A stretch of DNA of 64,000 bases, from NCBI RefSeq assembly GCF_001677475.2, contig NZ_CP015229.1. One strand, written 5' to 3'. Numbering within the stretch: position 1 is the stretch's first letter; each line of letters begins with the position of its first letter. Below are positions 39,881 through 59,312 of this stretch, one piece after another. The translations under genes were made by a program, and so were the position numbers. Below the pieces are notes generated by a model, which had not been told where the DNA came from, did no database searches, and saw only the letters and a list, made by a program, of their open reading frames with translations. This DNA comes from Escherichia coli. Its GTDB lineage: Bacteria > Pseudomonadota > Gammaproteobacteria > Enterobacterales > Enterobacteriaceae.

Positions 39881-40261
39881 ATGACTGAACGCATAGAATT
39901 TGTTTTGCCTTACCCGCCGACGGTAAACACCTACTGGAGACGTCATGGCAATACGTATTTCATCTCGGAAGTCGGAAAGCGTTATCGCCGTGATGTGGCT
40001 CTAATTGTTCGCCAGCAGCGACTGAAATTAAACCTGTCCGGAAGGCTGGCGATAAAGATTATTGCAGAGCCACCGGATAAGCGCCGTCGTGACCTGGACA
40101 ATATCCTGAAAGCACCGCTGGATGCGTTGACGCATGCGGGACTGCTTATCGACGACGAGCAGTTTGATGAAATCAATATTGTGCGCGGTCAGCTTGTTCC
40201 TGGTGGTCGGCTGGGCGTGAAGATTGACGAAATAATGCATGACGGGCAGGTCCAAAAATGA
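39881..40261 (+). CDS. rusA: Holliday junction resolvase RusA
   Basis: 126 aa; PPTVNTYWRRHGN...RRRDLDNILKAPLDALTHAGLLIDDEQ. Confidence 0.85.
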   Translation: MTERIEFVLPYPPTVNTYWRRHGNTYFISEVGKRYRRDVALIVRQQRLKLNLSGRLAIKIIAEPPDKRRRDLDNILKAPLDALTHAGLLIDDEQFDEINIVRGQLVPGGRLGVKIDEIMHDGQVQK

Positions 40262-41079
40262 AACTGGAAGATTTACCGAAATACTATTCCCCAAAATCGC
40301 CAGGCCTGACTGATGCATCCGCCTCGACGTCAAAAGATGCGCTGAGTATCACTGATGTGATGGCTGCGCAGGGTATGACACAGAACCGGGCTGAGATGGG
40401 ATTTTCTGCGTTCCTGGGGAAAATGGGCATTAGTATGAATGACAGGGCGCGGGCAACAGAATTACTGGCAGATTATGCATTAAGTCAGTGCGGTCGTGTG
40501 GCTGCGTTAAGAAAACTTCCGGCAGAGATAAAACCGGCAGTGATGCGCATTATGGCTTCGTACGCTTTTGAGGATTATGCCCGCAGCGCAGCGAGTAAAA
40601 AGCAATGCCCTTGTTGCCGAGGGGAAAAATTTATTGAAAGCGAGGTTTTTACAAACAAGGTTCAGTATCCGGATGGTAAGCCGCCAGTATGGGCAAAGTG
40701 TACAAAAGGCGTGTATCCGTCTTACTGGGAAGAATGGAAAAAAATCCGGGAGGTGGTGAAGGTTTCCTGTCCTGAATGTAAAGGGAAGGGAGAGATTTCG
40801 ACCGCCTGTAAAGACTGCCGTGGGCGTGGTGTAGCCATTCATCGTGAAGAGTCAGAAAAACGGGGTATGCCTGTTATCAGGGACTGCCAGCGTTGTGGCG
40901 GTCGTGGCTATGAAAGACAGCCGTCGACGGAGGCATTTAATGCCATATGTGAGGTGACAAATCAAATAACACGCGCGTCATGGGAAAAAACGGTTAAGCA
41001 ATTCTATGACACTCTGGTGGTTCGGTTTGACATTGAAGAGGCATGGGCGGAGCGGCAGTTAAAAAAGGTAACCAGATAA
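40258..41079 (+). CDS. Putative late-gene antiterminator (Q-like) with zinc-finger cysteines
   Basis: 273 aa; position after rusA and before tR'-like terminator and lysis genes. Confidence 0.5.
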   Translation: MKLEDLPKYYSPKSPGLTDASASTSKDALSITDVMAAQGMTQNRAEMGFSAFLGKMGISMNDRARATELLADYALSQCGRVAALRKLPAEIKPAVMRIMASYAFEDYARSAASKKQCPCCRGEKFIESEVFTNKVQYPDGKPPVWAKCTKGVYPSYWEEWKKIREVVKVSCPECKGKGEISTACKDCRGRGVAIHREESEKRGMPVIRDCQRCGGRGYERQPSTEAFNAICEVTNQITRASWEKTVKQFYDTLVVRFDIEEAWAERQLKKVTR

Positions 41080-41639: not shown

Positions 41640-42353
41640 ATGGCTGTTGTCTGTTCAGTTATCATGGTTTGCTCCCCAATTAATATTTTTCTTGAAAAGG
41701 ATAAGTTGTCACTTAAGCCCGGCTCAGTCGTTCTGGCCACCAAATGCATCAGGGAGCTGTTCCTTATGCATTATGGCAAAGTTAAAATTGTCGATATAAA
41801 CCATTCCATAGTAAGTCAATATCTGGAAAGTCAGCATAAGCTGACGAGGACTCGTCTGACTGACATTCCGCTTTACCTGTTCCTGGAACCCAACAATCCT
41901 GCGTTGGCTGCGGCTTTAATTACCAGCCAGAGATTTTACGGAGATACCACGGATATGTTTCTTATGATGGCCTGCCTGTCGCTGTTTGAATCAGATGAAC
42001 GGATGTCATTATTTTTAAGTGGATGTTTATCCAGTATAAGTGCCAAAGTCAGAGCGATAATTCAAACAGATATATCTGCAAACTGGATGCTCGGTGCGAT
42101 TGCGTTACGCCTGCATATGAGTGAGAGTTTGTTAAAGATAAAACTGAAAAATGAAGGGCATATGTTCAGTCGCTTGTTGCTGGAAGAGCGGATGCGGGTT
42201 GCTGTAAATATGTTATGTTCCCGGGATGGGTATGGACAGACAGTGGCAGAAAAATGCGGTTATTCAAGTAGGTCCTATTTTATCTCTGTATTTCACCGCT
42301 ATTATGGCTTCCCGCCAGACAGATATGTATCTATGCAAGGGCTTGATTTTTGA
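41640..42353 (+). CDS. AraC-family transcriptional regulator (prophage cargo)
   Basis: C-terminal AraC HTH (...GYSSRSYFISVFHRYYGFPPDRY); AT-rich; start may be internal Met. Confidence 0.6.
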   Translation: MAVVCSVIMVCSPINIFLEKDKLSLKPGSVVLATKCIRELFLMHYGKVKIVDINHSIVSQYLESQHKLTRTRLTDIPLYLFLEPNNPALAAALITSQRFYGDTTDMFLMMACLSLFESDERMSLFLSGCLSSISAKVRAIIQTDISANWMLGAIALRLHMSESLLKIKLKNEGHMFSRLLLEERMRVAVNMLCSRDGYGQTVAEKCGYSSRSYFISVFHRYYGFPPDRYVSMQGLDF

Positions 42354-42379: not shown

Positions 42380-42455
42380 GGCCCTTTAGCTCAGTGGTGA
42401 GAGCGAGCGACTCATAATCGCCAGGTCGCTGGTTCAAATCCAGCAAGGGCCACCA
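42380..42455 (+). tRNA. tRNA with CAT anticodon (Met or Ile2-lysidine; ileZ-like)
   Basis: 76 nt cloverleaf, anticodon loop CTCATAA, terminal CCA. Confidence 0.8.
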
Positions 42456-42541: not shown

Positions 42542-42554
42542 TTATCTGCATCAT

Positions 42555-42631
42555 GCGTTGTTAGCTCAGTCGGACAGAGCAATTGCCTTCTAAGCAATCG
42601 GTCACTGGTTCGAATCCAGTACAACGCGCCA
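42555..42631 (+). tRNA. tRNA-Arg (anticodon TCT; argO-like)
   Basis: 77 nt, anticodon loop CTTCTAA, GGTTCGAATCC T-loop, terminal CCA. Confidence 0.8.
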
Positions 42632-42804: not shown

Positions 42805-43230
42805 ATGTTTGGTATTTTTAAAAAGAAAACCCGCAAGGCCATTACCGAAGTGAAGAAGATGGAGAACCGCGACGCAGTGGAGGCGACCGTCTGGGGTGCG
42901 TATTCCATTGCATACGCTGACGGCACCTGTGACGCGAAAGAAATCGCAGTGCTGGAGAAAACCATTGCAGCACTTCCTGCCTTTGCGCCGTTCTCCGGTG
43001 AGATTGCACAAATGAGTGCAAATATCCGCGCCCGTTATGAAGCGTCACCGCGTTCTGCCAATGCCGAAGCCCTTCGTCAGCTGGCTGATGTTGCCGGTAC
43101 TGATGATGCAGTTAATGTGCTGTGCCTGTGTCTGGATATCGCTGACCAGGACGGCATTGGCCCGGATGAAGAAGCGCAGCTCAAGAAAATTGCTCAGGCG
43201 CTGCAGTTGCCGCTGGAGCAGTACCTGTGA
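42805..43230 (+). CDS. TerB-like domain protein
   Basis: 141-aa acidic helical protein between tRNA cluster and holin; family assignment is tentative. Confidence 0.4.
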   Translation: MFGIFKKKTRKAITEVKKMENRDAVEATVWGAYSIAYADGTCDAKEIAVLEKTIAALPAFAPFSGEIAQMSANIRARYEASPRSANAEALRQLADVAGTDDAVNVLCLCLDIADQDGIGPDEEAQLKKIAQALQLPLEQYL

Positions 43231-43491
43231 AAAGTGCGCGCCTTGTGCTGGCTGCCATCCTGCTGTTTCTGGTAGTGGTGGTGGATTTTACCGGACGGCT
43301 GATGTCGGTACTGGCAGATGGTGTGCTGGTGGTGATGGTGCTGGTCGTGCTCCGGCCTTTACTGCGCAAATCTGAATAACACCACGCAAAAGGCATCTGC
43401 GGGTGCCTTTGATTGGGTGTTGTTTTTACGGGCCGCTGGTGGCCTTTTTTTGTTTCCATTACACAACGCCCGCATCTGCGAGGTGGGGGTT

Positions 43492-43707
43492 ATGAAATCC
43501 ATGGACAAAATTTCAACGGGCATTGCCTATGGCACCTCCGCAGGCAGTGCTGGCTACTGGTTTTTACAGTGGCTTGATCAGGTCAGTCCGTCACAGTGGG
43601 CTGCGATTGGTGTATTGGGGAGTCTGGTTCTGGGCTTCCTGACTTATCTGACAAATCTGTACTTCAAAATCAGAGAAGACAGAAGAAAGGCTGCGAGAGG
43701 TGAATAA
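43492..43707 (+). CDS. Pinholin (phage 21 S-like) with dual-start motif
   Basis: [29 protein letters not shown]...; two Met codons three residues apart. Confidence 0.8.
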
Positions 43708-44204
43708 TGCCTCCATCATTACGAAAAGCCGTTGCTGCTGCTATTGGTGGCGGGGCTATTGCTATAGCATCTGTGTTAATCACTGGCCCAGGTGGTAACG
43801 ATGGTCTGGAAGGTGTCAGTTACATACCATACAAAGATATTGTTGGTGTATGGACTGTATGCCACGGACACACCGGAAAAGACATCATGCTCGGTAAAAC
43901 GTATACCGAAGCAGAATGCAAAGCCCTCCTGAATAAAGACCTTTCCACGGTCGCCAGACAAATTAACCCGTACATCAAAGTCGATATACCGGAAACAATG
44001 CGCGGCGCTCTTTACTCGTTCGTTTACAACGTGGGTGCTGGCAATTTCAGAACATCGACTCTTCTTCGCAAAATAAACCAGGGTGATATCAAAGGCGCAT
44101 GTGATCAGCTACGGCGCTGGACATACGCTGGCGGTAAGCAATGGAAAGGGCTGATGACCCGTCGTGATATTGAGCGTGAAGTCTGTTTGTGGGGGCAGCA
44201 ATGA
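43707..44204 (+). CDS. SAR endolysin (T4-lysozyme fold)
   Basis: 165 aa; N-terminal Gly/Ala-rich SAR segment [18 protein letters not shown]. Confidence 0.8.
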
Positions 44205-44665
44205 GCAGGGTAACCGCGATTATCTCCGCTCTGGTTATCTGCATCATTGTCTGCCTGTCGTGGGCGGTCAATCATTACCGTGATAACGCCATCGCCTACA
44301 AAGAACAGCGTGATAAAAAAGTCAGTGAGCTGAAGCAGGCAATCGCCACCATCGCTGACATGCAGCAGCGTCAGCGTGATGTTGCTGCGCTCGATGCAAA
44401 GTACTCGAGAGAATTAGCCAATGCGAAAGCTGAAAATGAAACTCTGCGCGCTGATGTTGCCGCTGGTCGTCGTCGGTTGCACATCAAAGCAGTCTGTCAG
44501 TCAGTGCGTGAAGCCACCACCGCCTCCGGCGTGGATAATGCAACCAGCCCCCGACTGGCAGACACCGCTGAACGGGATTATTTCACCCTCAGAGAGCGGC
44601 TGATGACGATGCAGATGCAACTGGAAGGGGCACAGGAGTATATCCGCACTCAGTGCATTAAGTAG
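44201..44665 (+). CDS. Spanin inner-membrane subunit Rz
   Basis: N-terminal TM, coiled coil, overlaps endolysin stop. Confidence 0.75.
44421..44603 (+). CDS. Spanin outer-membrane lipoprotein Rz1, embedded in Rz
   Basis: 60 aa in +1 frame inside Rz; lipobox VVGC; PPPPP tract. Confidence 0.75.
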
Positions 44666-44707: not shown

Positions 44708-45058
44708 ATGCCATCACGAATCCCACGCGCCTGCCGTAAGCGTGGATGTGCAGGTACAACCACAGACAGTTCTGGTTACTGCGATAAACATCGTGGCGAA
44801 GGATGGGTACAGCATCAACGCGGACTGAGCCGCCACCAGCGTGGCTATGGCTCGAAATGGGATGCCATACGTGCGCGCATACTGAAGCGTGATAATCATC
44901 TGTGTCAGAACTGCCTGCGCAATGGGAGAGCCGTTGAAGCCAGAACTGTGGACCACATCATTCCGAAAGCTCATGGTGGCACGGATGCAGACAGTAACCT
45001 GCAGAGTCTGTGCTGGCCCTGTCATAAAGCAAAAACAGCGCGCGAACGCATCAATTGA
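44708..45058 (+). CDS. HNH endonuclease (terminase-associated)
   Basis: 116 aa; HIIPKAHGG...CWPCH motif; directly upstream of terS. Confidence 0.75.
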   Translation: MPSRIPRACRKRGCAGTTTDSSGYCDKHRGEGWVQHQRGLSRHQRGYGSKWDAIRARILKRDNHLCQNCLRNGRAVEARTVDHIIPKAHGGTDADSNLQSLCWPCHKAKTARERIN

Positions 45059-45206
45059 TAACAGTTCCCATCTGTAGGGGAGGGGCGGGTCAAATCTCTG
45101 CAACCCTGGCTGCTCAGTACCGCCGCCTGACCCTTCTTCACATCGCCGCAGGTTCGAAAACTTTTTTTTGGAAATGTGAACAAACGATTGATAGGTAAGG
45201 CCGATT

Positions 45207-45689
45207 ATGTCAGGACCTCCGAAAACCCCGCCACGCCTGCATTTGATACGAGGCAACCCCTCAAAGCGCCCCGTTAAAGACCACAAAAAAACCGCTAAAA
45301 AGGATGAAAAAGGTCTTCCTAAAATTCCGCAGCATTTAGGGGCTCAGGGGAAGTACTGGTTCAGGCGAATGGCGGAAGAGCTGAATGCGGAAGGGATCAT
45401 TTCTCAGCTTGATGCGCGTGCACTCGAGTTGCTGGTGGAAGCCTACACCGAATATCGGCATCACTGCGAAACACTCGATGTTGAGGGGTATACCTACCGC
45501 ACGGAAACGCAGAGCGGTGATGTACTGATTAAGGCGCACCCCGCGGCGGCAATGAAAGCGGATGCCTGGAAGCGGATCCGGGCAATGCTTGCAGAGTTTG
45601 GTATGTCACCGGCAAGCCGGGCTAAAGTAAATATCGCCGGACCGGATGATGTTGATCCGCTGGCGGAGCTTTTAAAAGCGAGAGACTGA
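45207..45689 (+). CDS. Terminase small subunit (P27-family-like)
   Basis: 160 aa; homologous to the satellite TerS at 59601. Confidence 0.7.
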   Translation: MSGPPKTPPRLHLIRGNPSKRPVKDHKKTAKKDEKGLPKIPQHLGAQGKYWFRRMAEELNAEGIISQLDARALELLVEAYTEYRHHCETLDVEGYTYRTETQSGDVLIKAHPAAAMKADAWKRIRAMLAEFGMSPASRAKVNIAGPDDVDPLAELLKARD

Positions 45690-46716
45690 TGGCAAAAGTG
45701 GCTGACGGGATCCGCTACGCCGAACGTGTTGTTGCAGGAGAAATTGTTGCTGGCGAATTTGTCCGCCTGGCCTGCCAGCGTTTTCTTGATGATCTGAAGT
45801 ACGGCGAAGAGCGGGGGATTTATTTCAGTGAACCCCGTGCGCAGCACATCCTGAATTTCTACAAATTTGTGCCTCATGTAAAAGGGGCGCTGGCAGGCCA
45901 GCCCATTGAGTTGATGGACTGGCATGTATTTATTCTCATTAATATTTTTGGTTTTGTCATTCCGCTGGTCAATGAAGAGACCGGGGAAGTTGTCATGCGC
46001 AGCGATGGCAGTGGACGTCCGGTGATGGTGCGCCGGTTCCGGACGGCGTACAACGAAGTCGCTCGTAAAAACGCAAAATCAACTCTGTCATCGGGTATCG
46101 GCCTGTATATGACGGGGGCAGATGGTGAAGGCGGAGCTGAGGTGTATTCAGCCGCAACCACGCGTGACCAGGCCAGAATCGTGTTTGAAGACGCCAAAAA
46201 TATGGTCAGAAAAGCCCGGTCGACACTCGGGCGGTTGTTTGATTTCAACAAGCTGGCGATTTACCAGGAGCAGAGCGCATCAAAATTTGAACCGCTTTCT
46301 TCGGATGCAAACAACCTAGACGGTCTGAACATCCACTGCGCCATTATTGATGAGCTGCATGCACATAAAACCCGCGACGTGTGGGACGTTCTGGAAACGG
46401 CAACCGGTGCCCGTCTGCAGTCCCTGTTATTTGGTATCACCACGGCGGGCTTTAACAAGGAAGGGATTTGTTACGAGCAACGCGATTACGCCATCAAGGT
46501 ATTGCGAGGCTATAACAGCGACGTGGAGGGCGCGGTAAAAGACGACTCCTACTTTGCGATTATTTACACGCTCGATGAGGGAGATGATCCGTTTGATGAA
46601 ACGGTCTGGCAGAAAGCGAATCCGGGCCTGGGCATCTGTAAACGCTGGGATGATCTGCGTCGTCTGGCGAAAAAAGCGAAGGAGCAGGTCTCGGCGCGGG
46701 TGAATTTTTTCACGAA
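45689..46716 (+). pseudogene. Prophage terminase large subunit, N-terminal ~343 codons, interrupted by satellite insertion
   Basis: Aligns with satellite TerL N-terminus (PHVKGA..G.PIEL..W); frame runs into unrelated satellite DNA and stops at 46882. Confidence 0.8.
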
Positions 46717-46845
46717 GAAAGTAACATCACGCCGTAACAACAGTGCAGTCTGTCCTGATTTTTTTAGTAACCAAATGAAAGAAAAAGATTTTTTCTTGTT
46801 CGTCGTTTTTGTTTTTTCTGGATGGTTCTGGCTGTTTTCATCATT

Positions 46846-46867
46846 TGTGTATTGCACTGTGTATTGC
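46846..46867. repeat. Tandem GTGTATTGC repeats near satellite left end
   Basis: tgtgtattgcactgtgtattgc; near-identical copy at 62023-62043. Confidence 0.6.
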
Positions 46868-46887
46868 AAAAACGGGTTATAAATCAC

Positions 46888-48111
46888 ATGGCGCTAAACA
46901 AACTGAGCGATAAAAAACTTCGTTCCCTGCTTGGACGCAGGAGTGAGAGACAGGAAACCATCGCTGATGGTAACGGGCTTTCGGTACGGGTCAGTAAATA
47001 CGGATGTGTTAGTTTTGTTTTCTTTTACAGACTGGCGGGAAGGGGAACCGCGCCCATCTGGCTGACACTTGGAAAATATCCTGATCTGAGTCTCAAATCA
47101 GCGAGAGAGATGCGCGATCAGTGTCGAACCTGGCTTGCGGAGGGCAGAGATCCACGGATTCAGATAAAAATTGAACGGGAAGCCACCTTGCAACCTGTTA
47201 CCGTTCGTGAGGCACTTGAATACTGGCTTGATAATTATGCAATGGATAAGCGTAGGGGAGCAGAACATATCAGGCAGTGCTTTGGTAAACATATTTATCC
47301 GGTGATTGGTCATGTACCACTTAGTGATTGCTCTATATCTATGTGGATTAAGTGTTTTGACAAAATAAAAAAAGTAGCACCTGTACAGGCCGGAGCTTTG
47401 TTGCGTATATCAAAACAGGCGCTTAAATTTTGTAGGGTAAGAAAATACGCGATTAGTCATGAAATTGATGATCTTGAGGTCTGTGATGTGGGAAAAAAGT
47501 CTGCGCGAAGAAGCAGGGTTTTAACAGATGATGAAATCAGAGATTTATGGCGAAGTATTAATACTGATTATGACAATCACGAATTATCATATGAAAACCG
47601 AATTATTTTACGTTTCCTGGTAGTTTTTGGTTGCCGACTGTCAGAAGTATTACTGTCGTCCTGGGGAGAGTGGGATTTTGATAAGAAATTATGGCGCGTT
47701 CCCGCTGAACATAGCAAAAATGGCAGGGAAATAATCAGACCGATTCCTGATGGCATGTTTAACTGGTTAGTTACGTTAAAAAAAATAACAGGTAACAAAG
47801 AAAATGTGATTGGGTTTGATATGCGTCAGTGTACGGCAAGCGTAACTATCGGTAAGACATGGAAAAGGATGAAACACTCGGAGAAATGGACGGCGCATGA
47901 TATGCGAAGAGTGTTTGCCACAAAACTAAGTGATCATGGTTTTGAACATAATGTGGTTGAACAGTTGCTTGGGCACACATTAGGCGGTGTTGCCGGGGTT
48001 TATAACAGAAGCCAGTATATGGACAGAAAAAAAGAAGCTATGAACTGGTGGTACGACTATCTGAATAAGCAAATTAGTGGTGACGGTAATGATTCAAATA
48101 GTTACGCGTGA
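46888..48111 (+). CDS. int: P4-type tyrosine integrase
   Basis: 407 aa from MALNKLSDKKLRSLLGRR..GLSVRVSKYG (typical P4-family N-terminus); HDMRRVFAT...LGH...Y. Confidence 0.85.
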   Translation: MALNKLSDKKLRSLLGRRSERQETIADGNGLSVRVSKYGCVSFVFFYRLAGRGTAPIWLTLGKYPDLSLKSAREMRDQCRTWLAEGRDPRIQIKIEREATLQPVTVREALEYWLDNYAMDKRRGAEHIRQCFGKHIYPVIGHVPLSDCSISMWIKCFDKIKKVAPVQAGALLRISKQALKFCRVRKYAISHEIDDLEVCDVGKKSARRSRVLTDDEIRDLWRSINTDYDNHELSYENRIILRFLVVFGCRLSEVLLSSWGEWDFDKKLWRVPAEHSKNGREIIRPIPDGMFNWLVTLKKITGNKENVIGFDMRQCTASVTIGKTWKRMKHSEKWTAHDMRRVFATKLSDHGFEHNVVEQLLGHTLGGVAGVYNRSQYMDRKKEAMNWWYDYLNKQISGDGNDSNSYA

Positions 48112-48142
48112 AGAACTTGAAAATGATAAAACAATCGACAGG

Positions 48143-48310
48143 ATGATTAAGGAAGATGAATGTGCATGGTTAACCGCTCTTGGCAGGAGACACAGATCGT
48201 TACTTGAAAAGGAAGGAAAATTTCCACGAAAAATATGTATTGGTCCACAAACAAAAGTCTGGCGCTTATCTGAGGTGCTGGAATGGGTAAAAGGTGAATG
48301 GAAACCCTGA
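48143..48310 (+). CDS. AlpA-family DNA-binding protein, copy 1
   Basis: ORF 48077-48310; start at the internal Met (MIKEDECAWLTALG...); LSEVLEWV. Confidence 0.6.
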   Translation: MIKEDECAWLTALGRRHRSLLEKEGKFPRKICIGPQTKVWRLSEVLEWVKGEWKP

Positions 48311-48333
48311 GCTAAATTAAATGAGATATAATC

Positions 48334-48357
48334 AACCCGTCTTTTGGCGGGTTTTTT
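48334..48357 (+). terminator. Intrinsic terminator
   Basis: aacccgtcttttggcgggttttttt. Confidence 0.6.
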
Positions 48358-48373
48358 TATAGGTGATATTTTT

Positions 48374-48652
48374 ATGCAAAAATTTATTTATCCTACACCC
48401 GAAGAACGCATTCAGATTCTGAAAGATCATGGCGAACCGTATGATCGCCGTATACGCGAACATGAGTGTGCCAATCGTACCGGGCTTTCAAGAAGCAGAC
48501 GTTGGGTACTTGAACAGGAGGGAGCATTTCCTGCTCGTGCTCATTTAGGGAAAGTGTCTGTTTCCTGGTTGCTCTCTGATGTGCTCTGGTGGGTTATGCA
48601 TCCGCCAGGAGTAAAGGAAGTAAACAGCCCATACAAAAACGCCAATAAGTAA
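48374..48652 (+). CDS. AlpA-family DNA-binding protein, copy 2
   Basis: From MQKFIYPTPEER; ECANRTGLSRSRRWVLEQEGAFPA. Confidence 0.6.
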   Translation: MQKFIYPTPEERIQILKDHGEPYDRRIREHECANRTGLSRSRRWVLEQEGAFPARAHLGKVSVSWLLSDVLWWVMHPPGVKEVNSPYKNANK

Positions 48653-48660
48653 TTACCGAC

Positions 48661-48690
48661 AACCCCGCACCACGCAATGCGGGGTTTTTT
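48661..48690 (+). terminator. Intrinsic terminator
   Basis: aaccccgcaccacgcaatgcggggtttttt. Confidence 0.65.
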
Positions 48691-48706
48691 GTATGTGAGG
48701 TAGAAA

Positions 48707-49303
48707 GTGATGAATAAAAATATTGCCGTGACGGGCAAGGGTGACGCACGTCATGTGAAAAAATTCTGTGATATTCGTGATCTGGTCGTTCTGCGCTTTG
48801 ATAGTGTGAACGTTCGCGTGGTGTATCTGAACGGCGATCCGTGGTTTGTTGGCGCTGATGTGTGTGCGGCGCTGGAAATTAGCAACGTTACCGATGCTGT
48901 TTCAGTTCTGGATAACGATGAGGTAATGACCCTAGCTTTAACCGAGGGTCATTCAGGTAAGCGTGGTGGTGCCAGAAGTTGGAATGTTGTATCAGAATCA
49001 GGTTTTTACAAGTTGATCGCCAGAAGTCGCAAAGCTGTTAATCCTGGCACGTTCGCCCATCGTTTCAGTAATTGGGTATTCAGAAATGTGATACCGGGTA
49101 TCAGAAAAACGGGGGCTTATGGTATCCCGTGGGGCGCATTACAGGATTTTTCCCGCCGCAAAGAGCAATATCAGGTAAGTGCCAGCGAGAAGGGGAGGGA
49201 GCTACAGGCATGTAAGCGCAAAAAGCGTGAGCTAGAGGAAGAAGAAAAAAGGCTGATACGTGAATATCAGCCTGAGTTTTACTTTGGTGAGCGTATTCAG
49301 TAA
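48707..49303 (+). CDS. Bro-N domain protein (antirepressor-like)
   Basis: 198 aa; N-terminal ...VYLNGDPWFVGADVCAALEISNVTDAVSVLDNDE. Confidence 0.6.
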   Translation: MMNKNIAVTGKGDARHVKKFCDIRDLVVLRFDSVNVRVVYLNGDPWFVGADVCAALEISNVTDAVSVLDNDEVMTLALTEGHSGKRGGARSWNVVSESGFYKLIARSRKAVNPGTFAHRFSNWVFRNVIPGIRKTGAYGIPWGALQDFSRRKEQYQVSASEKGRELQACKRKKRELEEEEKRLIREYQPEFYFGERIQ

Positions 49304-49915
49304 CCACACGCGGTGCTGATTATACGGTACATCGTGTTAACCGAGAAGCTACCCACCAGCAAGGCAAAATCTTCTGCTAAAAAATGACATATGGCCAGTC
49401 GTCTGGAAAGCATGAAATTTTACAAAAATGGAAAATGAAGATTTTTATTGTGCTGGTGGGTAAAAACAAAAAGCGCCCCGTTGCCGGAGCGCCCTTGCGA
49501 ACAATTAACCTACTGCGCAAAAAAATGAATCTGTGCAGGGGGATTATATCAACCGTGTGACGAAGCGCCACAATTGCCGGATAACAGGCAAAGAAAAGGC
49601 CACCCGCTACGGTGGCCCTTCGACACAAGCTACACGTTATCCCCAACGCATGAGCGTCGCCAACAATGCCACATTTGCGGCTGGTGGGCAATGTGATCAG
49701 TGTGCTGGCTTGCTGGTGGGCTATTCCTGCTCTTTGGCCTTGCGTTGCTTTAGTGCTGCACGAGCTAATCAATCATTGTATATGAGGCGTGGAATCTTTT
49801 TTTCATCACTCCTGCATACACGCTCATTACTGACGTGTTCATTGCTGATGCAATTTCCCAGGAGGAAAGCAAATAAAAACAAAGAGCCAAGCCAGTATAG
49901 TACTTGCTGCATAAG

Positions 49916-50101
49916 TTATTCCTTATCTGATTCTTTGGTTTTTTTCCGTTGGCGGCGTTTGATCTCGCCACGCATGGCTGCGCTTATAAACTGCCCTGTA
50001 CTTTCGCCATCTTCTTTCACGTTTTCCATGCCTTCAATAATTTCATGGGCAATACGTGCAGTTACAGATTGTGATTTTGCATTCTTTGGACCTGTTGCCA
50101 T
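49916..50101 (-). CDS. Small putative ribbon-helix-helix regulator
   Basis: 61 aa from MATGPKNAKSQSVTARIAHEIIEG; GAGGGG RBS; divergent from rightward operon. Confidence 0.4.
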   Translation of the reverse strand: MATGPKNAKSQSVTARIAHEIIEGMENVKEDGESTGQFISAAMRGEIKRRQRKKTKESDKE

Positions 50102-50122
50102 GTCTAACCCCTCATGTTTTTG

Positions 50123-50204
50123 GTGTAAGACAATATACACGAAAAAAAACTATTTTAAAGGGTTGACGTGTAAGACACTGTTGTTTTATGTTGTGTCTTA
50201 CACC
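50123..50204. promoter_or_regulatory. Candidate operator array: three GTGTAAGACA(C) sites
   Basis: Sites at 50123-50132, 50168-50178 and inverted 50194-50204 (11-bp palindrome, 15-bp spacer) overlapping a TTGACG -35-like hexamer. Confidence 0.5.
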
Positions 50205-50300
50205 TTGAGTGTTCAAGGTTCAGAAACTGCGAAGCCCGTAGGTGCCGCTAACACCCACAGGCTTCTAACCACCAACGATAGTAATAGTATCGAGGCAGCT

Positions 50301-50504
50301 ATGAGAAATCATACCACACACCCGCAAGGGCGGGACTCGCACAACCTGAATAAATACATCTGGCGTTTTATCGCCCTGAGCACGGCACAACCGCGCGTAA
50401 TTCACATCGTGGCCACCAGCGAACAGGAAGCGCGTCAGCAATCTCCTGATGGCTGCGTGATGGTATTCGCCGCCCGTATTCGTCAGGGGTCACATCATGC
50501 GTAA
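50301..50504 (+). CDS. Small Icd-like/Ash-family-like protein, copy 1 (tentative)
   Basis: C-terminal WRF...ATSEQEARQQ...VFAARIRQG motif shared with the next ORF. Confidence 0.35.
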   Translation: MRNHTTHPQGRDSHNLNKYIWRFIALSTAQPRVIHIVATSEQEARQQSPDGCVMVFAARIRQGSHHA

Positions 50505-50790
50505 AAACCGCTTGCAAAAAATTATCACGGGACTGTATGCTTCCCGCGTCACCCACATGGTGACCGGGTTTGACAGCCTGAATACTACAGCGGACAGCCG
50601 CTTACATTCCGATATGCGGTTTTTTTGTGTCCGTAAACCTACCCATACCCGCATTATGGCGGGGCGTAACGGGGGAGCCTTTGCGCTCGCTGGTTCCTGT
50701 AGTGCCAGTCTGTCAACCCTGTTACGTCTCGCCACCATGTTTGACAGCGTAGTAGCGAGACTCCTTAATTTCACTACAGGAGCCTTTCAC

Positions 50791-50964
50791 ATGGCTGTAT
50801 CCACACGCCCTTATTTTGTCTGGCGCTTCATGCAGTGCCATGAAAAACAAACCTCACTCTTTACCGTCACGGCTGCCACTGAGCGCGAAGCACGCGCGCA
50901 GCTGCCGCACGCACATCTGATTTTTGTCGCCCGTATCCGTCAGGGGGTAAACCATGTTCAGTAA
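50791..50964 (+). CDS. Small Icd-like/Ash-family-like protein, copy 2 (tentative; may extend upstream to 50497)
   Basis: C-terminal VWRF...AATEREARAQ...IFVARIRQG. Confidence 0.35.
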   Translation: MAVSTRPYFVWRFMQCHEKQTSLFTVTAATEREARAQLPHAHLIFVARIRQGVNHVQ

Positions 50965-51175
50965 CAACACACCGGACGCAGCCGCAAAAGCGTTAACCAC
51001 GCTGATGCACGCGCTGATTGATATTGAATGCACGGCAGAGCTTGCGCAGAACAAAGGGAAGGAAGATTACACCGCGTTCTGCCTGGAATGTATCCGCTAT
51101 ATTTCTTCCCGCTCTCTGGATGAGGCTAAAAATATTCTTATTGCTGATTGTGAAAATGGGGGGGGTTATGCGTGA
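50954..51175 (+). CDS. Hypothetical protein
   Basis: 73-aa ORF. Confidence 0.3.
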   Translation: MFSNNTPDAAAKALTTLMHALIDIECTAELAQNKGKEDYTAFCLECIRYISSRSLDEAKNILIADCENGGGYA

Positions 51176-51391
51176 TGATCGTTTTAATTCCCTGAAACAG
51201 GAATTTTCCGGCGTGCCTGATGATGCGGCTGATGCGCTTTCGTCAATATCTGAAATAATGAGGGCGGCTTTTTTTCTTTCTTTGCACTGATGAGCACAGG
51301 GATACAGGGTTAAATATTCTTGATATCGCCGCTAACTATGCTGACTTCGTAACGGAAGCAGCGTCAAGAAAAACAACGGGTGGGGATTAAT

Positions 51392-51625
51392 ATGCGTGAT
51401 ATTTACATTGAAACAATAGACCGCGTATTTCTTGCACTTTCTCACAGTGAAAACATGCTGGAAATATTACGCATATGGCTTGAAACGCTTGGAGATAATG
51501 AACGTGATAAACAGAAATCCAGAATTGCCACGGCATTAATAACGCTTCTTGAGCCTGTAATAAATGAGTTACAGGAAATAGAGACATTACACGACAGATA
51601 TAAAGAACAGCACACCGGAGAATAA
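51392..51625 (+). CDS. Hypothetical protein
   Basis: ORF 51380-51625, start at MRDIYIETID. Confidence 0.35.
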   Translation: MRDIYIETIDRVFLALSHSENMLEILRIWLETLGDNERDKQKSRIATALITLLEPVINELQEIETLHDRYKEQHTGE

Positions 51626-51630
51626 AAATA

Positions 51631-51930
51631 ATGAAACTTAAATATTCTGGCTTAACTGCCAGCGGCCCCGCTCGGCCTGAAATCCGTAACGGCGATATTT
51701 ACCGCGACCAGTACGGTGGCACGGTAATGATTAAGGGCGTGGCGGGACGGTGCGTTACCTACCGCCGTGAAGGTTACGAATATGACTGCGTGATGCCTGT
51801 TTATCAGTTCCGGCGTGATTTTTCTCTGGTACAGGCAGCGCAACGCGGTAAGCCCACCAGCAACGCCAGGGCACGTGCAAACATCCAGAAACTGAAAACC
51901 ATGATTAACGGATTCAGGGGTAAAAAATGA
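51631..51930 (+). CDS. Hypothetical protein
   Basis: 99-aa ORF upstream of the rep gene. Confidence 0.35.
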   Translation: MKLKYSGLTASGPARPEIRNGDIYRDQYGGTVMIKGVAGRCVTYRREGYEYDCVMPVYQFRRDFSLVQAAQRGKPTSNARARANIQKLKTMINGFRGKK

Positions 51931-53336
51931 AACTGGCACCGAACGTAAAACTATTACCGAAAGATAAGCACACAGAAGCGATTATTTTCGCGGGTGTTGA
52001 TGCTCACTCATTTGCAGAGCACTACATCATTGCACAGGCCAAAAAGGCGGGAGACCCGACGCCTCCCGTTTACCTGGGCCGTTATCAGTTAAGCGAACTG
52101 GATAACTTGCAGATTGTTGATGAGGGGCGGTACAGGGCGACAGTGATACGCGCCGGAAATATTGACGAAGCGCAGCTGCTAACCATCGCGACGAAACTGG
52201 CGATCGCCGGAGTCCAGGAAGCGCGGCTGCTTTCTGAAAATTTCGAATTGCTGGAGAAATGGACCGACCAGCTACCACGGTTGCGGGAGACATGGGAGAG
52301 AGGGGAAAGCCTGGTAATGGCAAAAAACCCCCAACGAAACACCACGCTACCGATGAGCGTTGGATCTGCCGGATACGACACGCAGCTGGATTACGTGGTT
52401 AAGGGCATTATTCCGGCGTCGTCGCTGTGCAGCATATACGGGGCGAGCGGTTCCTATAAATCATTCCTTGCGGGTTCGTGGGCGTGTCACGTTTCCACGG
52501 GCCGCCAGTGGGGAGGCCGCAGGGTTGCGCATGGTGCCGTTCTCTATGTGGTTGGTGAAGGCGGTATTGGTGTACCACGTCGTGTAAAAGCCTGGGAGGT
52601 TGTGCACGATGTACAGGTGAAAAATCTGTACCTGGTAAACCGCCCCGTCTTTCCGGCGGTCCCGCTTGATGTTGATGAAATGGTTATCGCTGCCCGTCAG
52701 GTGGAGCGGGAAACGGGTAAACCTGTACGCATGATTATTCTGGATACGCTGGCGCGTTGCTTTGGCGGCAATGATGAAAATGATTCCCGTGATATGGGGG
52801 CGTTTATCCGTGGGTGTGACGAACTGAAACGACGCACAGGGGCTACGGTGCTGGTGGTTCACCATTCCGGCAAGGATGAGACGAAAGGCGCGCGAGGTTC
52901 CAGTGCATTCCGTGCGTCACTGGATGCCGAATACCGGATACGCAGAGAGGACGCAGGAAGCGAGGCGCTGGTAATCTCATGTACCAAAATGAAGGACGCG
53001 GAGGAACTTAAAGAAGCCGCCTACGATTTGCGGGTGGTGGAGCTATTTACCGACGCTGACGGCGAATTAATTACGTCGCTGGTGGTGGTGGATAAGCCGC
53101 GTCCTCCCGTTGAACTGGAGCGCATCGAGGAGGCAGGCAACAAGACGGAAAACCATACCGCGTTATGGGGGTGCATCCGGTCGCGCACACAGAACGGTGA
53201 TAAGTGCACTATTGCGCTGTTACGTGACGATATGAAAAAGCTGGGGTATGAGATGAAGCACTTCAGCCGCTGGTTACGCAAGCTGGAAAAAGACGGGGTT
53301 ATTTATATCGACGGTGATGACGTAGGCACGCTGTAA
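51927..53336 (+). CDS. Replication protein: RepA-like RecA-fold helicase/ATPase with C-terminal DNA-binding region
   Basis: 469 aa; Walker A GASGSYKS, Walker B MIILD, HHSGKDETKGARGSSA; iterons immediately downstream. Confidence 0.7.
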   Translation: MKLAPNVKLLPKDKHTEAIIFAGVDAHSFAEHYIIAQAKKAGDPTPPVYLGRYQLSELDNLQIVDEGRYRATVIRAGNIDEAQLLTIATKLAIAGVQEARLLSENFELLEKWTDQLPRLRETWERGESLVMAKNPQRNTTLPMSVGSAGYDTQLDYVVKGIIPASSLCSIYGASGSYKSFLAGSWACHVSTGRQWGGRRVAHGAVLYVVGEGGIGVPRRVKAWEVVHDVQVKNLYLVNRPVFPAVPLDVDEMVIAARQVERETGKPVRMIILDTLARCFGGNDENDSRDMGAFIRGCDELKRRTGATVLVVHHSGKDETKGARGSSAFRASLDAEYRIRREDAGSEALVISCTKMKDAEELKEAAYDLRVVELFTDADGELITSLVVVDKPRPPVELERIEEAGNKTENHTALWGCIRSRTQNGDKCTIALLRDDMKKLGYEMKHFSRWLRKLEKDGVIYIDGDDVGTL

Positions 53337-53530
53337 AAAGTGGGGTGCAAAAGTGGGGAGAGTGAGCAAAACGCCCGAAAAACGCCATTATTCCCCACTT
53401 TTCAACGTATATATACCCAAAAAAGTGGGGAGTAAAAAAATCTTTATGAAACAGCACGATAAAAATCAAAAACTCCCCACCTGTAACGAGGTGGGGAAGT
53501 GTAAAAAGTGGGGCGCAAAAGTGGGGAGTG
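53336..53530. repeat. Iteron array, candidate satellite replication origin
   Basis: Eight or more copies of AAAGTGGGG / CCCCACTTT in both orientations within ~195 bp. Confidence 0.7.
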
Positions 53531-53786
53531 ATGGGGAAATGACCAGAATACGCAGAGACAGAACAGAGCCGAAATATAAAGCGTTAGACATGACAGAGCT
53601 TTCCTTAACGGTGGCAATCAAAGCGATAGACCGCCACACGCGGGAAGGATACGCGAAGGAACATCCCGAACTGATAAGCGCATTCATGGCCGCAGCGGCT
53701 GCAAACTTTGCCACGCTGACAGAACGGGAGACAGCCGAGGCAGAACAGGTAACAACCATCAACGTTAAAACCGGAGGGGTGGAATC

Positions 53787-54212
53787 ATGACGGCACAGAT
53801 AGCAGCTTACGGGCGGCTGGTGGAGGACCCGCAGGTAAAACAGACCAGCAAGGGAACACCCATGACGCTGGCGAGTATGGCGGTTCCCCTGCCATGCAGC
53901 CAGGCAGATGACGGAACGGCGACGATGTGGTTATCCGTCCTGGCGTTTGGCAGACAGGCCGACGCACTGGCAAAACACCGCAAAGGCGAACTGGTGAGCG
54001 TGGCGGGTAACATGCAGGTAAGCCAGTGGACAGGGCAGAACGGCGAAACGCGGCAGGGCTGGCAGGTTATTGCAGACAGCGTAATCAGTGCGCGAACGGC
54101 GCGACCGGGCGGCAAAAAAGGCCAACAGGGGCAGGCCACTGACGCACTGAACAGGGCAAAACAACAGACAGGCCAGCACGATGATCCGTACGGGGACGGG
54201 ATACCGTTTTAA
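53787..54212 (+). CDS. ssb: Single-stranded DNA-binding protein
   Basis: 141 aa; OB-fold-like N-terminus, Gly/Gln-rich linker, acidic tail ending DDPYGDGIPF. Confidence 0.7.
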   Translation: MTAQIAAYGRLVEDPQVKQTSKGTPMTLASMAVPLPCSQADDGTATMWLSVLAFGRQADALAKHRKGELVSVAGNMQVSQWTGQNGETRQGWQVIADSVISARTARPGGKKGQQGQATDALNRAKQQTGQHDDPYGDGIPF

Positions 54213-54227
54213 GCAGTGAGGTACAGC

Positions 54228-54509
54228 ATGATTAAAGACAGCAAAGCGGAAGAACTGGAGGCTAAAGGGCTGTACCGGAGAGCGGCGGCACGTTGGGCTG
54301 ATGTTATGTGGCTGGTGAGCACTGACAAGGAGCGCGAACAAGTGGCAAAGCGTCGCGCGGAATGTATCCGTAAGGCAGCACGCCCACCAGTCATACCGGA
54401 TAATTTCGGAATACTGAAAGAGGCCATAAACCGCACACATACCGGGATGGGCTTACAGAAGCCTGGCGGTGAGATGTTCAGGAACTACCCGAAAAAAGGG
54501 GATAATTGA
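54228..54509 (+). CDS. Hypothetical small basic protein (possibly PerC-like regulator; tentative)
   Basis: ORF 54216-54509; KGLYRRAAARWADVMW motif. Confidence 0.3.
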   Translation: MIKDSKAEELEAKGLYRRAAARWADVMWLVSTDKEREQVAKRRAECIRKAARPPVIPDNFGILKEAINRTHTGMGLQKPGGEMFRNYPKKGDN

Positions 54510-54554
54510 TAACGGTTGTTAACTGTTTCTGGTATCGTGGTAGCAGGAGGAAAC

Positions 54555-54803
54555 ATGCCAGTGACATTTGAAGAAGTCCAGCAACATAAAAAGCTTCATG
54601 GTTTTGATGATCTGGAAACCACGACAGCAAAAAAATATCGCCGGCTGCTTTCTTCCGATGCGTTATTTTTTGTGGATCATCATGATTTTCTGCGTAGCTC
54701 ACTGACCGGGGAAATTTTCGCAACCAACCGTGAGCAGGTGGAAGCGATGATCGAATATCTGTGGAAAATAAGGCGCAGAATGCGTGATCCCGTGAAACGG
54801 TAG
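54555..54803 (+). CDS. Hypothetical protein
   Basis: ORF 54516-54803, start at MPVTFEEVQQ. Confidence 0.35.
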   Translation: MPVTFEEVQQHKKLHGFDDLETTTAKKYRRLLSSDALFFVDHHDFLRSSLTGEIFATNREQVEAMIEYLWKIRRRMRDPVKR

Positions 54804-54811
54804 AATAATAA

Positions 54812-54842
54812 TGGCCTGGTATTTTCCAGGCCATTTTTTTTT
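54812..54842 (+). terminator. Intrinsic terminator
   Basis: ggcctggtattttccaggcc followed by T-run. Confidence 0.7.
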
Positions 54843-55314
54843 AGAAGTCGATCTCTGTATCGCGATTAAATTCATCGCTAAGGTAAAGTGCTTCGCTTGG
54901 GCATTTTCCGTTTTCCAGTAATGTTTCCCAGAAATCTTTATCGAAACACCCCTCAAGATACAGATAGCGGCAGATGTGAAGTAAATCACTTCGTGTCCAT
55001 CCGTGCATGCTGCTACTTGTTACACCATATTCACTTTCTAGTTTATAGAATGTGAGCGCCTCCCGGTCGTGCCAGGCTTTGCACAGACGATCGTATATCT
55101 TTTTAGCTTTGTTTTTAGATGTGCCGAAAAACTCTTCGTAAATTTCATGTGGGCGAGTAGGAATACTTCCGTCGCCATCCTGCAAGAAAGGATAAACATC
55201 TGCCTCCCAGGCATACACGTAAGAATCGCTGAACTCATCATAGTGTTTACCAAGGTGGAGAATCTGCAATCGTTGCTGAATGAACATTGCTTTTTTCAGT
55301 TCATTTTCTGACAT
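54841..55314 (-). CDS. Hypothetical 157-aa protein on the opposite strand (candidate accessory/cargo gene)
   Basis: Only minus-strand gene within the replication-packaging span; no family recognised. Confidence 0.5.
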   Translation of the reverse strand: MSENELKKAMFIQQRLQILHLGKHYDEFSDSYVYAWEADVYPFLQDGDGSIPTRPHEIYEEFFGTSKNKAKKIYDRLCKAWHDREALTFYKLESEYGVTSSSMHGWTRSDLLHICRYLYLEGCFDKDFWETLLENGKCPSEALYLSDEFNRDTEIDF

Positions 55315-55608
55315 AGTTCGTTCCTCCTGATTAACGAGCAGAAAATGTACGGAACAGCTTATTTATTTTTTCAGGTTTTGTAAGTTATTTGTTCGTGGTT
55401 GTTCCAGGTTGTTCGGTGATTCTGGCTGATGTTTACATACTGATTTTTATGTATATGTTGGCGTGTGGCACTCAGACGTGAGCCGCCACAATGCCGCCTG
55501 ACCCCCTGCGCGATGCCGGGTTGATCTGCGAGATGCCGAGAGTGTCGGGCGGCGCTCCCTCCGTGTTGGTTTCACGTCCTGAATCTTAACCAATACGAGA
55601 AAACCTTC

Positions 55609-56754
55609 ATGAAGAAATTAATCGAACTCCGCCAGCAAAAAACCGCCCTGAAAAACCAGATGCGATCCCTGCTGGAAAAAGCCGACAGTGAAAACCGCAG
55701 CCTGAACGATGACGAAGGCAAACAGTTTGATGAACTGCGTGCAAAAGCCGATTCCCTCGACACAGAAATCTCCCGTCTTGAAGCTGTTGCGGATGAAGAA
55801 CGTAACCAGCCAGGTGTTTGCGTCGAAGAGAAAATTACCAAAGACGAACTGCGCTCTTACATTCTGACCGGGGAAACCCGCAACCTGTCCGGCAGTGTTC
55901 CGGCTGATGGTGGTTATACGGTTATCCCGGAACTGAACAGAGAAATTATGCGTCAGCTTTCTGATGAATCGGTGATGCGTAAAATCTGTACTGTTAAAAC
56001 CATTCACAGCAATGAATTTAAGCAACTGGTTTCTGCCGGGGGCGCGGTCGTTGAACACGGTGAAGAAGGCACTACACGTAACCAGACGGCAACCCCAAAA
56101 CTGAATGAAGTCAGTATCCGCCTGTATCCGATCTACGCTTACCCGAAAACCACTCAGGAAATTATCGATTTTTCCGAAGTCGATATTATGGGCTGGTTAT
56201 CTTCTGAAATTGGCGACACTTTCGTTGATACCGAAGAAACGGATCTGGTTTCTGGTGATGGCGAGAAAAAAGCTAAAGGTTTCCTGGCTTTTCCGCGCAC
56301 TGAGGATAACGACAAAACCCGTCCTTTCGGTACGCTCCAGACGAAAAAAGTTACTGGCAGTCTTAGCGCCGACATGCTGATTGACCTGAAATTTACGCTG
56401 CGCAATAAGTACCGCAAAAAAGCTGTATGGGTGATGAACTCAAATACAGCCGCCTCCGCACAAAAACTGAAAAATGCCACTGGTGATTACATCTGGCGCG
56501 ATCGTTTACAGGCTGGTGATCCTGATTCTCTGCTGGGGCTTCCGGTTGAATATCTGGAATTTATGCCGGACGGTGTGATTGCAGTAGGTGACTTTAAGCG
56601 CGGTTATTTCATCGTTGACCATGAAACCGGTACGCGTACCCGTCCGGATTTCAGCGAACCTGGATTCATTAACATCTATACCCAGAAATATCTGGGCGGT
56701 GGTGTGGTGGATTCGAACGCCATCAAGATTCTGGAAATTCAGGCTGGCAAGTAA
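55609..56754 (+). CDS. Major capsid protein (HK97 fold)
   Basis: 381 aa; N-terminal coiled-coil delta region; hairpin after stop. Confidence 0.8.
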   Translation: MKKLIELRQQKTALKNQMRSLLEKADSENRSLNDDEGKQFDELRAKADSLDTEISRLEAVADEERNQPGVCVEEKITKDELRSYILTGETRNLSGSVPADGGYTVIPELNREIMRQLSDESVMRKICTVKTIHSNEFKQLVSAGGAVVEHGEEGTTRNQTATPKLNEVSIRLYPIYAYPKTTQEIIDFSEVDIMGWLSSEIGDTFVDTEETDLVSGDGEKKAKGFLAFPRTEDNDKTRPFGTLQTKKVTGSLSADMLIDLKFTLRNKYRKKAVWVMNSNTAASAQKLKNATGDYIWRDRLQAGDPDSLLGLPVEYLEFMPDGVIAVGDFKRGYFIVDHETGTRTRPDFSEPGFINIYTQKYLGGGVVDSNAIKILEIQAGK

Positions 56755-56803
56755 TGAGCAAAGGGGGCTTCGGCCTCCTTTTTCAGCTTTATGGAGTACA
56801 CCG

Positions 56804-57364
56804 ATGAAAAACACCGATTTTGAAATCCGTACATCTGAACTGACCGCCAGCGATAAAAAACTGGTGGGTTATGCCGTTCGCTGGAACAGCCTTTCAGAAA
56901 TTATTTGGGACGAATTCCGCGAACAGTTCACGCCGGGGGCTTTTGCTGACTATCTGGCGGCGGGTAATGATGTGCGCTGCCTGTATGAGCATGACTATAC
57001 CCGACTGCTGGGGCGCACCAAATCCGGAACACTGGTACTGACTGAGGACAACACCGGGCTACGTTTTGAACTGACACCGCCTGATACCCAGCTTGGAAAA
57101 GATGTGCTTACGCTGGTGGAGCGTGGCGACATTACAGGAATGAGCTTTGGCTTTCGCGCATTATGCGAAGAGTGGAATATCGCGCAAAAACCGTATCTGC
57201 GCACTGTTACCGCCGCAGAACTCCGTGAAATCACGATAACGTCGATGCCTGCTTATCCCGAATCTGGCGTGGAGATTGCCCACCGTTCGTTGTTTGCACA
57301 GCACCCTGAATTACGCCCGGCAGGAAATAATCGTCATCGCTGGGCTGAACTGGCGGGGTTGTGA
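56804..57364 (+). CDS. Prohead maturation protease (HK97 family)
   Basis: 186 aa from MKNTDFEIRTSELTASDKKLVGYAVRWNS. Confidence 0.75.
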   Translation: MKNTDFEIRTSELTASDKKLVGYAVRWNSLSEIIWDEFREQFTPGAFADYLAAGNDVRCLYEHDYTRLLGRTKSGTLVLTEDNTGLRFELTPPDTQLGKDVLTLVERGDITGMSFGFRALCEEWNIAQKPYLRTVTAAELREITITSMPAYPESGVEIAHRSLFAQHPELRPAGNNRHRWAELAGL

Positions 57365-57365
57365 T

Positions 57366-58580: not shown

Positions 58581-58872
58581 AGAAAAAATTACACCTGATG
58601 AAGTCAGGGCACATCTTCGCCTTGATGACTTTTCCGGAGAGGGCGAACTTCTGAAAATGTATACCGATGCGGCGCTGGAAGCCTGCCAGAAGCATATCGG
58701 GAAACGTTTTGAAGACGGCCTGGAATTTACCCCGGCAATACGTGTTGGTTGCCTGATGTACATTGCTTTCCTGTACGAGAACAGGGAAGCGGTTTCACCT
58801 GTGGAGCAGTCTGAACTGCCTATGGCTATTTCTGCGCTCTGGTCGGTTTATCGTGATGTGGGGGTGTACTGA
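58573..58872 (+). CDS. Head-tail connector/adaptor (gp6-like)
   Basis: 99 aa from MSEEKITPDEVRAHLRLDDFSGEGELL. Confidence 0.6.
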   Translation: MSEEKITPDEVRAHLRLDDFSGEGELLKMYTDAALEACQKHIGKRFEDGLEFTPAIRVGCLMYIAFLYENREAVSPVEQSELPMAISALWSVYRDVGVY

Positions 58873-59312
58873 TGCCGTGGCAACCATTAAGGCGATGCAC
58901 TGAGCCGGGCTGTAATAAGCGCGTGAAGTCCGGCAAGTGTGAAGAGCACAGGCGGGCTGCATGGCGTGCAGAGGATGCCAGACGGGGACACCGCCGCGCG
59001 CGCGGGTATTCCCGACAGTGGGACAAATACCGCGCCCTGTACCTGAGCAAAAACCCGTTATGCGTGCGTTGTCTGGCTAAGGGGATTTATACGCCAGCTC
59101 TTGTGGTGGATCACATCATTCCCATCAATGGCGGCGGTGATGTTCTCTTCTGGCCTGAGTGGAACCACCAGGCATTGTGCCAGACGTGCCACAACCGTAA
59201 GACGACACGGGAAGACCCAGCCACGAAAGCGAACCGTAAGGCGGGCATGTATCGCGAGCAGGAAGAACGGGCGGCACACCGTAACGACTGGATGTATGGC
59301 GATGATGACTGA
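58872..59312 (+). CDS. HNH endonuclease (terminase-associated)
   Basis: 146 aa; CVRCL...VDHIIPINGGG...CQTCHNRKT. Confidence 0.75.
   Translation: MPWQPLRRCTEPGCNKRVKSGKCEEHRRAAWRAEDARRGHRRARGYSRQWDKYRALYLSKNPLCVRCLAKGIYTPALVVDHIIPINGGGDVLFWPEWNHQALCQTCHNRKTTREDPATKANRKAGMYREQEERAAHRNDWMYGDDD

Follow-up and report, generated by a model that had tools for sequence, protein, structure and literature searches.

Sequence analysis of a phage 21-like lysis cassette, with pinholin, SAR endolysin and embedded spanin genes, in an Escherichia coli prophage

Four short genes stand close together in a 64,000-nucleotide stretch of Escherichia coli DNA (hereafter the window), and the question that they raise is which kind of phage lysis system they encode and whether they still belong to a prophage that could make use of it. 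The initial annotation had read them as a cassette made up of a pinholin, a signal-anchor-release (SAR) endolysin and an embedded Rz/Rz1 pair, and every element of that reading that was put to the test has held. We are highly confident that a lambdoid prophage on an E. coli-type chromosome has its late-operon lysis cassette here, and that this cassette is of the phage 21 pinholin, SAR endolysin and two-component spanin kind. All four exact proteins are already public under names that either match this assignment or are generic (class II holin, lysozyme RrrD, lysis protein, and Rz1 family lipoprotein), and the cassette is accordingly a correctly annotated, ordinary textbook lysis module that offers nothing new and in itself matters little. 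It marks the start of the late region of the prophage, in which lysis comes first and packaging follows.

Within positions 43492-44665 there are four intact open reading frames, S, R, Rz, and Rz1, all on the + strand (Table 1), and the extent originally assigned to the cassette, from the S start to the Rz end, proves to be exact. The genes are tightly interlocked: R begins within the S stop codon, the A of its ATG being also the final A of the TAA (a TAATG junction), the Rz ATG overlaps the R stop codon TGA in an ATGA junction, and Rz1 begins 220 nt after the Rz start (3 × 73 + 1) and ends 62 nt before the Rz stop, so that it is, as had been claimed, wholly embedded in Rz in the +1 frame. Rz1 thus spans 0.47 L to 0.87 L of the Rz length, close to the typical range of embedded o-spanins, which runs from 0.4-0.5 L to 0.9-1 L (PMC6139136). 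For Rz we take the ATG at 44201 as the start, in agreement with the phage 21 annotation and with a 154-aa database protein, the first possible start being a GTG at 44189. The four frames are translationally coupled, and the Pfam matches given below place them far beyond chance. The Shine-Dalgarno-like element listed in Table 1 was read from the sequence, and the terminator-like hairpin, 40 nt upstream of S, came from a consensus scan. This hairpin probably shields the lysis genes from transcription that comes in from upstream, except by RNA polymerase that carries the Q modification, but the evidence is weak, as the terminator-like sites between 41000 and 45300 do not exceed the shuffle expectation (7 against 4.5 expected, no enrichment). 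A promoter scan of the same interval returned 4 sites against 4.7 expected, and the late promoter could not be placed.

Table 1. Coordinates of the lysis cassette and of neighbouring features in the window
Feature	Position	Strand	Remarks
Prophage integrase	24793..25812		
Q antiterminator	40258..41079		PF03589-type
AraC-family regulator gene	41640..42353		between Q and the tRNAs
tRNA-Met(CAT)	42380..42455		between Q and S
tRNA-Arg(TCT)	42555..42631		between Q and S
TerB-like ORF (141 aa, PF05099) and DUF3927 ORF (50 aa)	42805..43379		4-nt overlap; directly 5' of the cassette
Terminator-like hairpin	about 43430..43455	+	GGGCCGCTGGTGGCCT and T-run; between the DUF3927 gene and S
Shine-Dalgarno-like GAGGTG	43480..43485	+	6 nt 5' of the S71 ATG
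S gene, S71 product	43492..43707	+	71 aa; antiholin; begins MKSM (ATG AAA TCC ATG)
S gene, S68 product	43501..43707	+	68 aa; active pinholin; from the second ATG
R gene, SAR endolysin	43707..44204	+	165 aa; T4-lysozyme-type muramidase
SAR domain of R, coding region	43728..43799	+	residues 8-31
Rz gene, i-spanin	44201..44665	+	154 aa; N-terminal TMD, residues 4-26; charged periplasmic domain
Rz1 gene, o-spanin lipoprotein precursor	44421..44603	+	60 aa; embedded in Rz, +1 frame
HNH endonuclease, then P27-family TerS	44708..45689		downstream of Rz; TerL next
cfPICI-like (capsid-forming-PICI-like) island	46714..62122		15,409 bp; in terL, 2 kb downstream of Rz
Island HNH gene	58872..59312		upstream of the island TerL

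The S product falls in the Pfam family PF04971, "Bacteriophage P21 holin S" (E = 8.6e-36, 122.2 bits against a cut-off of 26), and its exact sequence is found in public databases as HOLIN_BPP21 or as a class II holin. Both of its forms are identical to their phage 21 counterparts (71/71 residues for S71 and S21-71, 68/68 for S68 and S21-68), and at the nucleotide level the gene departs from that of phage 21 at 28 positions, all of them synonymous (26 synonymous codons, 0 non-synonymous). This identity, together with the M-K-S-M dual start at 43492-43503, bears out the proposal that the holin is of the phage 21 pinholin type. A hydropathy scan of the 71 residues found two uncharged hydrophobic stretches only, at residues 7-28 and 30-58 in S71 numbering, and no third, in keeping with a two-segment holin rather than one with three or more transmembrane segments. 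The first stretch is weakly hydrophobic (mean Kyte-Doolittle value, KD, 0.52; 55% G/A/S/T), and the second (mean KD 0.98) is followed by a charged 13-residue C-terminal tail. Given 100% identity to the protein used in the phage 21 experiments (PMC9636201), S would be expected to form small heptameric holes of ~2 nm that depolarise the membrane without letting the endolysin pass. A regulatory hairpin at the dual start is unsupported, as the predicted RNA fold of 43465-43540 is no more stable than that of shuffled sequence (minimum free energy -21 against a shuffle mean of -20.4 kcal/mol, z = -0.19).

The R product is a phage lysozyme by Pfam (PF00959, E = 2.8e-45, above cut-off) and shares 160 of its 165 residues with R21, the two genes being separated by 15 synonymous and 5 non-synonymous codon differences. 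It matches the full-length R21 structure end to end (PDB 3hde, E = 5.6e-110), as it does RrrD of the E. coli K-12 prophage DLP12 (PDB 4zpu, E = 3.7e-109), and it matches the truncated form of R21 from residue 27 onward (PDB 3hdf, E = 8.7e-94). The Gly/Ala-rich SAR N-terminus that had been ascribed to it is present: residues 8-31 form a 24-residue uncharged stretch with 62% G/A/S/T, a mean Kyte-Doolittle value of 1.41 and no cysteine, and the N-terminal stretch is identical to residues 1-28 of R21 in 3hde. This stretch precedes an intact catalytic triad, E35-X8-D44-X5-T50, which corresponds to the E-X8-D-X5-T lysozyme motif as defined in PMC9239132. The only cysteines of the protein are at positions 52, 71, 132 and 160. 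Lyz of phage P1 resembles R in having an N-terminal SAR domain and a T4-lysozyme-type fold, and R has a weak match (E about 1e-7) to PDB entries 1xjt and 1xju, which we take to be the P1 Lyz structures. P1 Lyz is activated by a disulfide isomerisation that involves a cysteine in its SAR domain; R here is, like R21 and unlike P1 Lyz, free of cysteine in residues 1-51, and a SAR domain of this composition therefore points to refolding of the R21 type rather than to the disulfide mechanism of P1 Lyz. With 97% identity to R21, R would be exported in a Sec-dependent manner, tethered to the membrane and released on depolarisation or by the pinholin, release by a pinholin being the definitive test of a SAR endolysin (PMC9239132). 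The ratios of synonymous to non-synonymous codon differences, 26:0 for S and 15:5 for R, give a clear signature of purifying selection on both genes.

The two remaining frames encode the spanins. Rz belongs to PF03245, Rz lysis protein (Pfam, E = 2.1e-49, above cut-off), is identical to phage 21 Rz at 126 of 154 positions, with 22 synonymous and 26 non-synonymous codon differences over the first 152 codons, and has a single strong N-terminal transmembrane segment (mean KD 2.0), the remainder being hydrophilic; its exact sequence is public as a "lysis protein". Rz1 belongs to PF06085, Rz1 lipoprotein precursor (Pfam, E = 6.4e-20, above cut-off), is identical to its phage 21 counterpart at 55 of 60 positions (2 synonymous and 5 non-synonymous codon differences), and occurs as the exact protein on about 1000 contigs. 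Its lipobox reads VVGC, and the residue that follows the lipidated Cys20 is a threonine, so that the lipoprotein should not be retained in the inner membrane; the mature part, Cys20-Gly60, is a Pro-rich chain of 41 residues with 9 prolines and a cysteine at position 29. The periplasmic cysteines of the pair, Cys99 and Cys152 of Rz and Cys29 of Rz1, presumably correspond to the lambda positions. Such cysteines serve homotypic intermolecular disulfides, of which lambda Rz/Rz1 has three (PMC6139136). Among the NCBIfam models there was no match for the holin or for Rz1, and the matches of R and Rz remained below threshold.

Alignment with S, R, Rz and Rz1 of phage 21, which the initial annotation had named as one way to check its reading, places the cassette next to that phage: protein identity is 100% for S, 97% for R, 92% for Rz1, and 82% for Rz, with a DNA identity of only about 87-96% per gene. 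The sequenced Escherichia phage 21 (OL657228.1), one of 548 matching records in a megablast search of the phage collection (91.2% DNA identity), is annotated with antiholin S21-71, class II holin S21-68, SAR endolysin, i-spanin, and o-spanin, and it shares with the window the gene order, the TAATG and ATGA overlaps, the dual start and the embedded +1 Rz1. The two differ on either side of the cassette. Between Q and S the prophage carries an AraC-type gene, two tRNAs, a TerB-like gene and a DUF3927 gene, whereas phage 21 has two tRNAs (Asn and Thr) with pR' and a terminator immediately before them; downstream, an HNH gene and a P27-type TerS gene take the place that bor has in phage 21; and the Q protein, of PF03589, is of a type that differs from phage 21 Q. 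A second relative is essD-rrrD-rzpD/rzoD of DLP12, which is a decayed prophage, and RefSeq names for the homologues (rrrD, essD, "Rz1 family lipoprotein") refer in part to it. Unlike DLP12, the prophage described here still has an integrase, a Q antiterminator and packaging genes.

Matches that cover at least 80% of the query are present in 2,686 of 5,426 complete E. coli genomes and in 47 phage records. For 43400-44700, full-length DNA identity reaches at best about 93-94%, in the phage collection and in the complete E. coli genomes alike, and none of the complete E. coli genomes covers at least 80% of 40200-43500; the exact mosaic is therefore absent from both sets, although the same gene order is present in two draft assemblies (L009 and L010). 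An identical Rz protein of 154 aa is also found behind three other holin/endolysin types in a set of eight loci (L004-L011). In L007, L008 and L011 its front end consists of a lambda-type PF05106 holin and a 158-aa endolysin, in L006 of PF16931 and PF05449 holins with an M15 peptidase, and in L004, L005, L009 and L010 of a pinholin/SAR-lysozyme pair. An HNH gene of the same size follows the identical Rz in all eight loci, and a TerS gene also follows in seven of them, L004 having a different terminase. On these comparisons the cassette is a mosaic, with S and R of the phage 21 lineage and an Rz/Rz1 allele that recurs with the downstream HNH gene and not with a particular S-R pair. The recurrence of this allele with the HNH gene accounts for an Rz identity to phage 21 of only 82%, against 100% for S and 97% for R. 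Modules have clearly been exchanged at the R/Rz boundary, and the same Rz/Rz1 allele behind four holin/endolysin sets makes a clean example of module shuffling.

The proposed course of lysis follows the phage 21 paradigm as reviewed in PMC9636201, PMC9239132, and PMC6139136, from which we carry over the size of the pinholes, the release of the SAR endolysin and the function of the spanins on the strength of sequence identity. Late transcription, antiterminated by Q, would express S, R, Rz and Rz1, and the two starts of S would yield the holin S68 and the antiholin S71, whose extra N-terminal lysine would delay conversion. S68 would build up in the inner membrane alongside S71 until, at a programmed time, the weakly hydrophobic first transmembrane segment of S leaves the bilayer, upon which the second would assemble ~10^3 heptameric pinholes, ~2 nm in size, and the proton-motive force would collapse (PMC9636201). 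R, exported by Sec and until then anchored in the inner membrane in an inactive state through its SAR domain, would be freed by this depolarisation, refold and degrade the murein (PMC9239132, PMC9636201). The complex of Rz in the inner membrane and the lipoprotein Rz1 in the outer membrane, freed in turn from the murein mesh, would then disrupt the outer membrane by fusion (PMC6139136).

The surroundings of the cassette are those of a prophage. The flanking chromosome (18000-25000) has up to 98.8% identity to the E. coli segment from helD to yccA, which is present in essentially all complete genomes, and besides its integrase the prophage carries genes for an exonuclease, a repressor-type HTH protein, a YdaT-like protein, DUF968 and RusA, the integrase, exonuclease and HTH genes lying further upstream of the cassette than RusA and Q. 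The AraC-family gene has its best NCBIfam resemblance to YdeO and GadX, well below the cut-offs; it resembles a prophage-borne regulatory moron of the kind found in pathogenic E. coli. Because related E. coli prophages annotate the tRNA cluster as tRNA-Ile and two tRNA-Arg, the CAT tRNA, entered as Met in Table 1, may be an Ile (lysidine) tRNA. On the other side of the cassette, the position of the HNH gene immediately 5' of the P27-family TerS gene is an arrangement typical of HK97-like packaging modules.

One of the packaging genes is itself interrupted. The prophage terL is split into 45689..46713 and 62123..62855, its homology to an intact terL being lost after 46713 and regained at 62112, and the intervening island starts with a P4-type tyrosine integrase and also encodes a Bro-N protein, an AAA_25 primase-like protein, an SSB, a major capsid protein, a prohead protease, a portal, an HNH protein and a TerL of its own, which is identical to the prophage TerL at 181 of 590 aligned positions. 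The gene content of the island agrees with what has been described for capsid-forming PICIs (PMC10085698). E. coli OkiPb01701 has a nearly identical island, whose annotation also lists AlpA-type regulators, a head-tail connector and a P27-family TerS, and the same junction of terL and integrase occurs in 35 complete E. coli genomes and in the draft assemblies L009 and L010. A direct repeat, TT(T/C)TCACGAA, borders the island on both sides, and joining the sequence across this repeat restores a TerL of 585 residues, 582 of which are identical to those of phage phi467 TerL.

With this inventory the competing readings of the locus can be weighed. Lambda, with its S105/S107-R-Rz/Rz1 genes, resembles the cassette in its three-step lysis logic, its dual-start holin/antiholin and its embedded +1 spanin (PMC6139136), and the S-R-Rz/Rz1 order and the position after Q are the same in both, as would suit a canonical lambda-type system with a large-hole holin and a cytoplasmic endolysin. 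Lambda, however, makes micron-scale holes with a three-TMD holin and has a cytoplasmic transglycosylase as its R protein, whereas in the prophage the holin shows two hydrophobic stretches and is a member of PF04971, not of PF05106, the family of lambda S, and the endolysin, nearly identical to R21, is of the GH24 lysozyme type and has a SAR stretch at its N-terminus. A two-TMD pinholin with a SAR lysozyme is therefore the reading that we retain, and for a lambda-type system the remaining probability is vanishingly small. The combination of a class I holin (three-TMD, PF05106) with an endolysin without export signal was considered as a candidate and is ruled out by the sequence. A similarly negligible likelihood attaches to the idea that the Rz1 frame, being short (60 codons) and overlapping another gene, is no gene at all but a chance open frame inside Rz: it has the family match, the lipobox and the Pro-rich mature part described above, and it is largely identical to an annotated o-spanin of phage 21. 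The nucleotide divergence of Rz from phage 21 also falls from 36/220 before the Rz1 overlap to 8/183 within it and rises again to 16/53 after it, an unevenness that fits coding constraint on both frames, though a recombination boundary might give the same picture.

Another reading concerns the state of the prophage rather than the type of cassette: the lysis genes might be a relic in a defective prophage, as essD-rrrD-rzpD is in DLP12, having lost their part in phage release and being either adrift or kept for some host purpose. The interruption of terL, 2 kb downstream, and the habit of annotators of naming the homologues rrrD and essD after cryptic-prophage genes would suit this, and with its terL split by a 15.4-kb island the prophage may not make virions as it stands. 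Against it, all four lysis frames are intact, and the codon changes in S relative to phage 21 are without exception synonymous; the interruption of terL is an integrase-bearing island with a short flanking direct repeat, the precise excision of which would restore the 585-aa TerL; and within the window the prophage still has an integrase, a Q antiterminator, a TerS gene and the part of terL that encodes the C-terminus. We consider the relic improbable, with a small but real chance of being correct, and continue to regard the locus as the lysis cassette of a lambdoid prophage of the phage 21 kind.

The satellite-in-terL arrangement is the more interesting feature of the locus and might repay further work. 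No lysis gene was seen in the island among ORFs of at least 110 aa, and it is conceivable, though rather unlikely, that the cassette serves both prophage and satellite, the insertion in terL being a reversible switch that silences helper packaging until the island excises, and the satellite being released by means of the cassette and the prophage tails. There are reports of satellites within prophages (mentioned in PMC10085698), and a limited search found no description in the literature of a satellite at this terL site. Two further observations concern the island itself. A 21-nt direct repeat, GTGTATTGC(A/G)CTGTGTATTGC, which is itself a tandem of GTGTATTGC, occurs at 46847..46867 and at 62023..62043, just inside the two ends of the island, and these copies may be arm-type binding sites of the integrase. 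Immediately after the AAA_25 primase-like gene, 53332..53553 holds three spaced AAAAAGTGGGG(N)GCAAAA-like repeats at ~84 bp spacing, an iteron-like array that could be the replication origin of the island.
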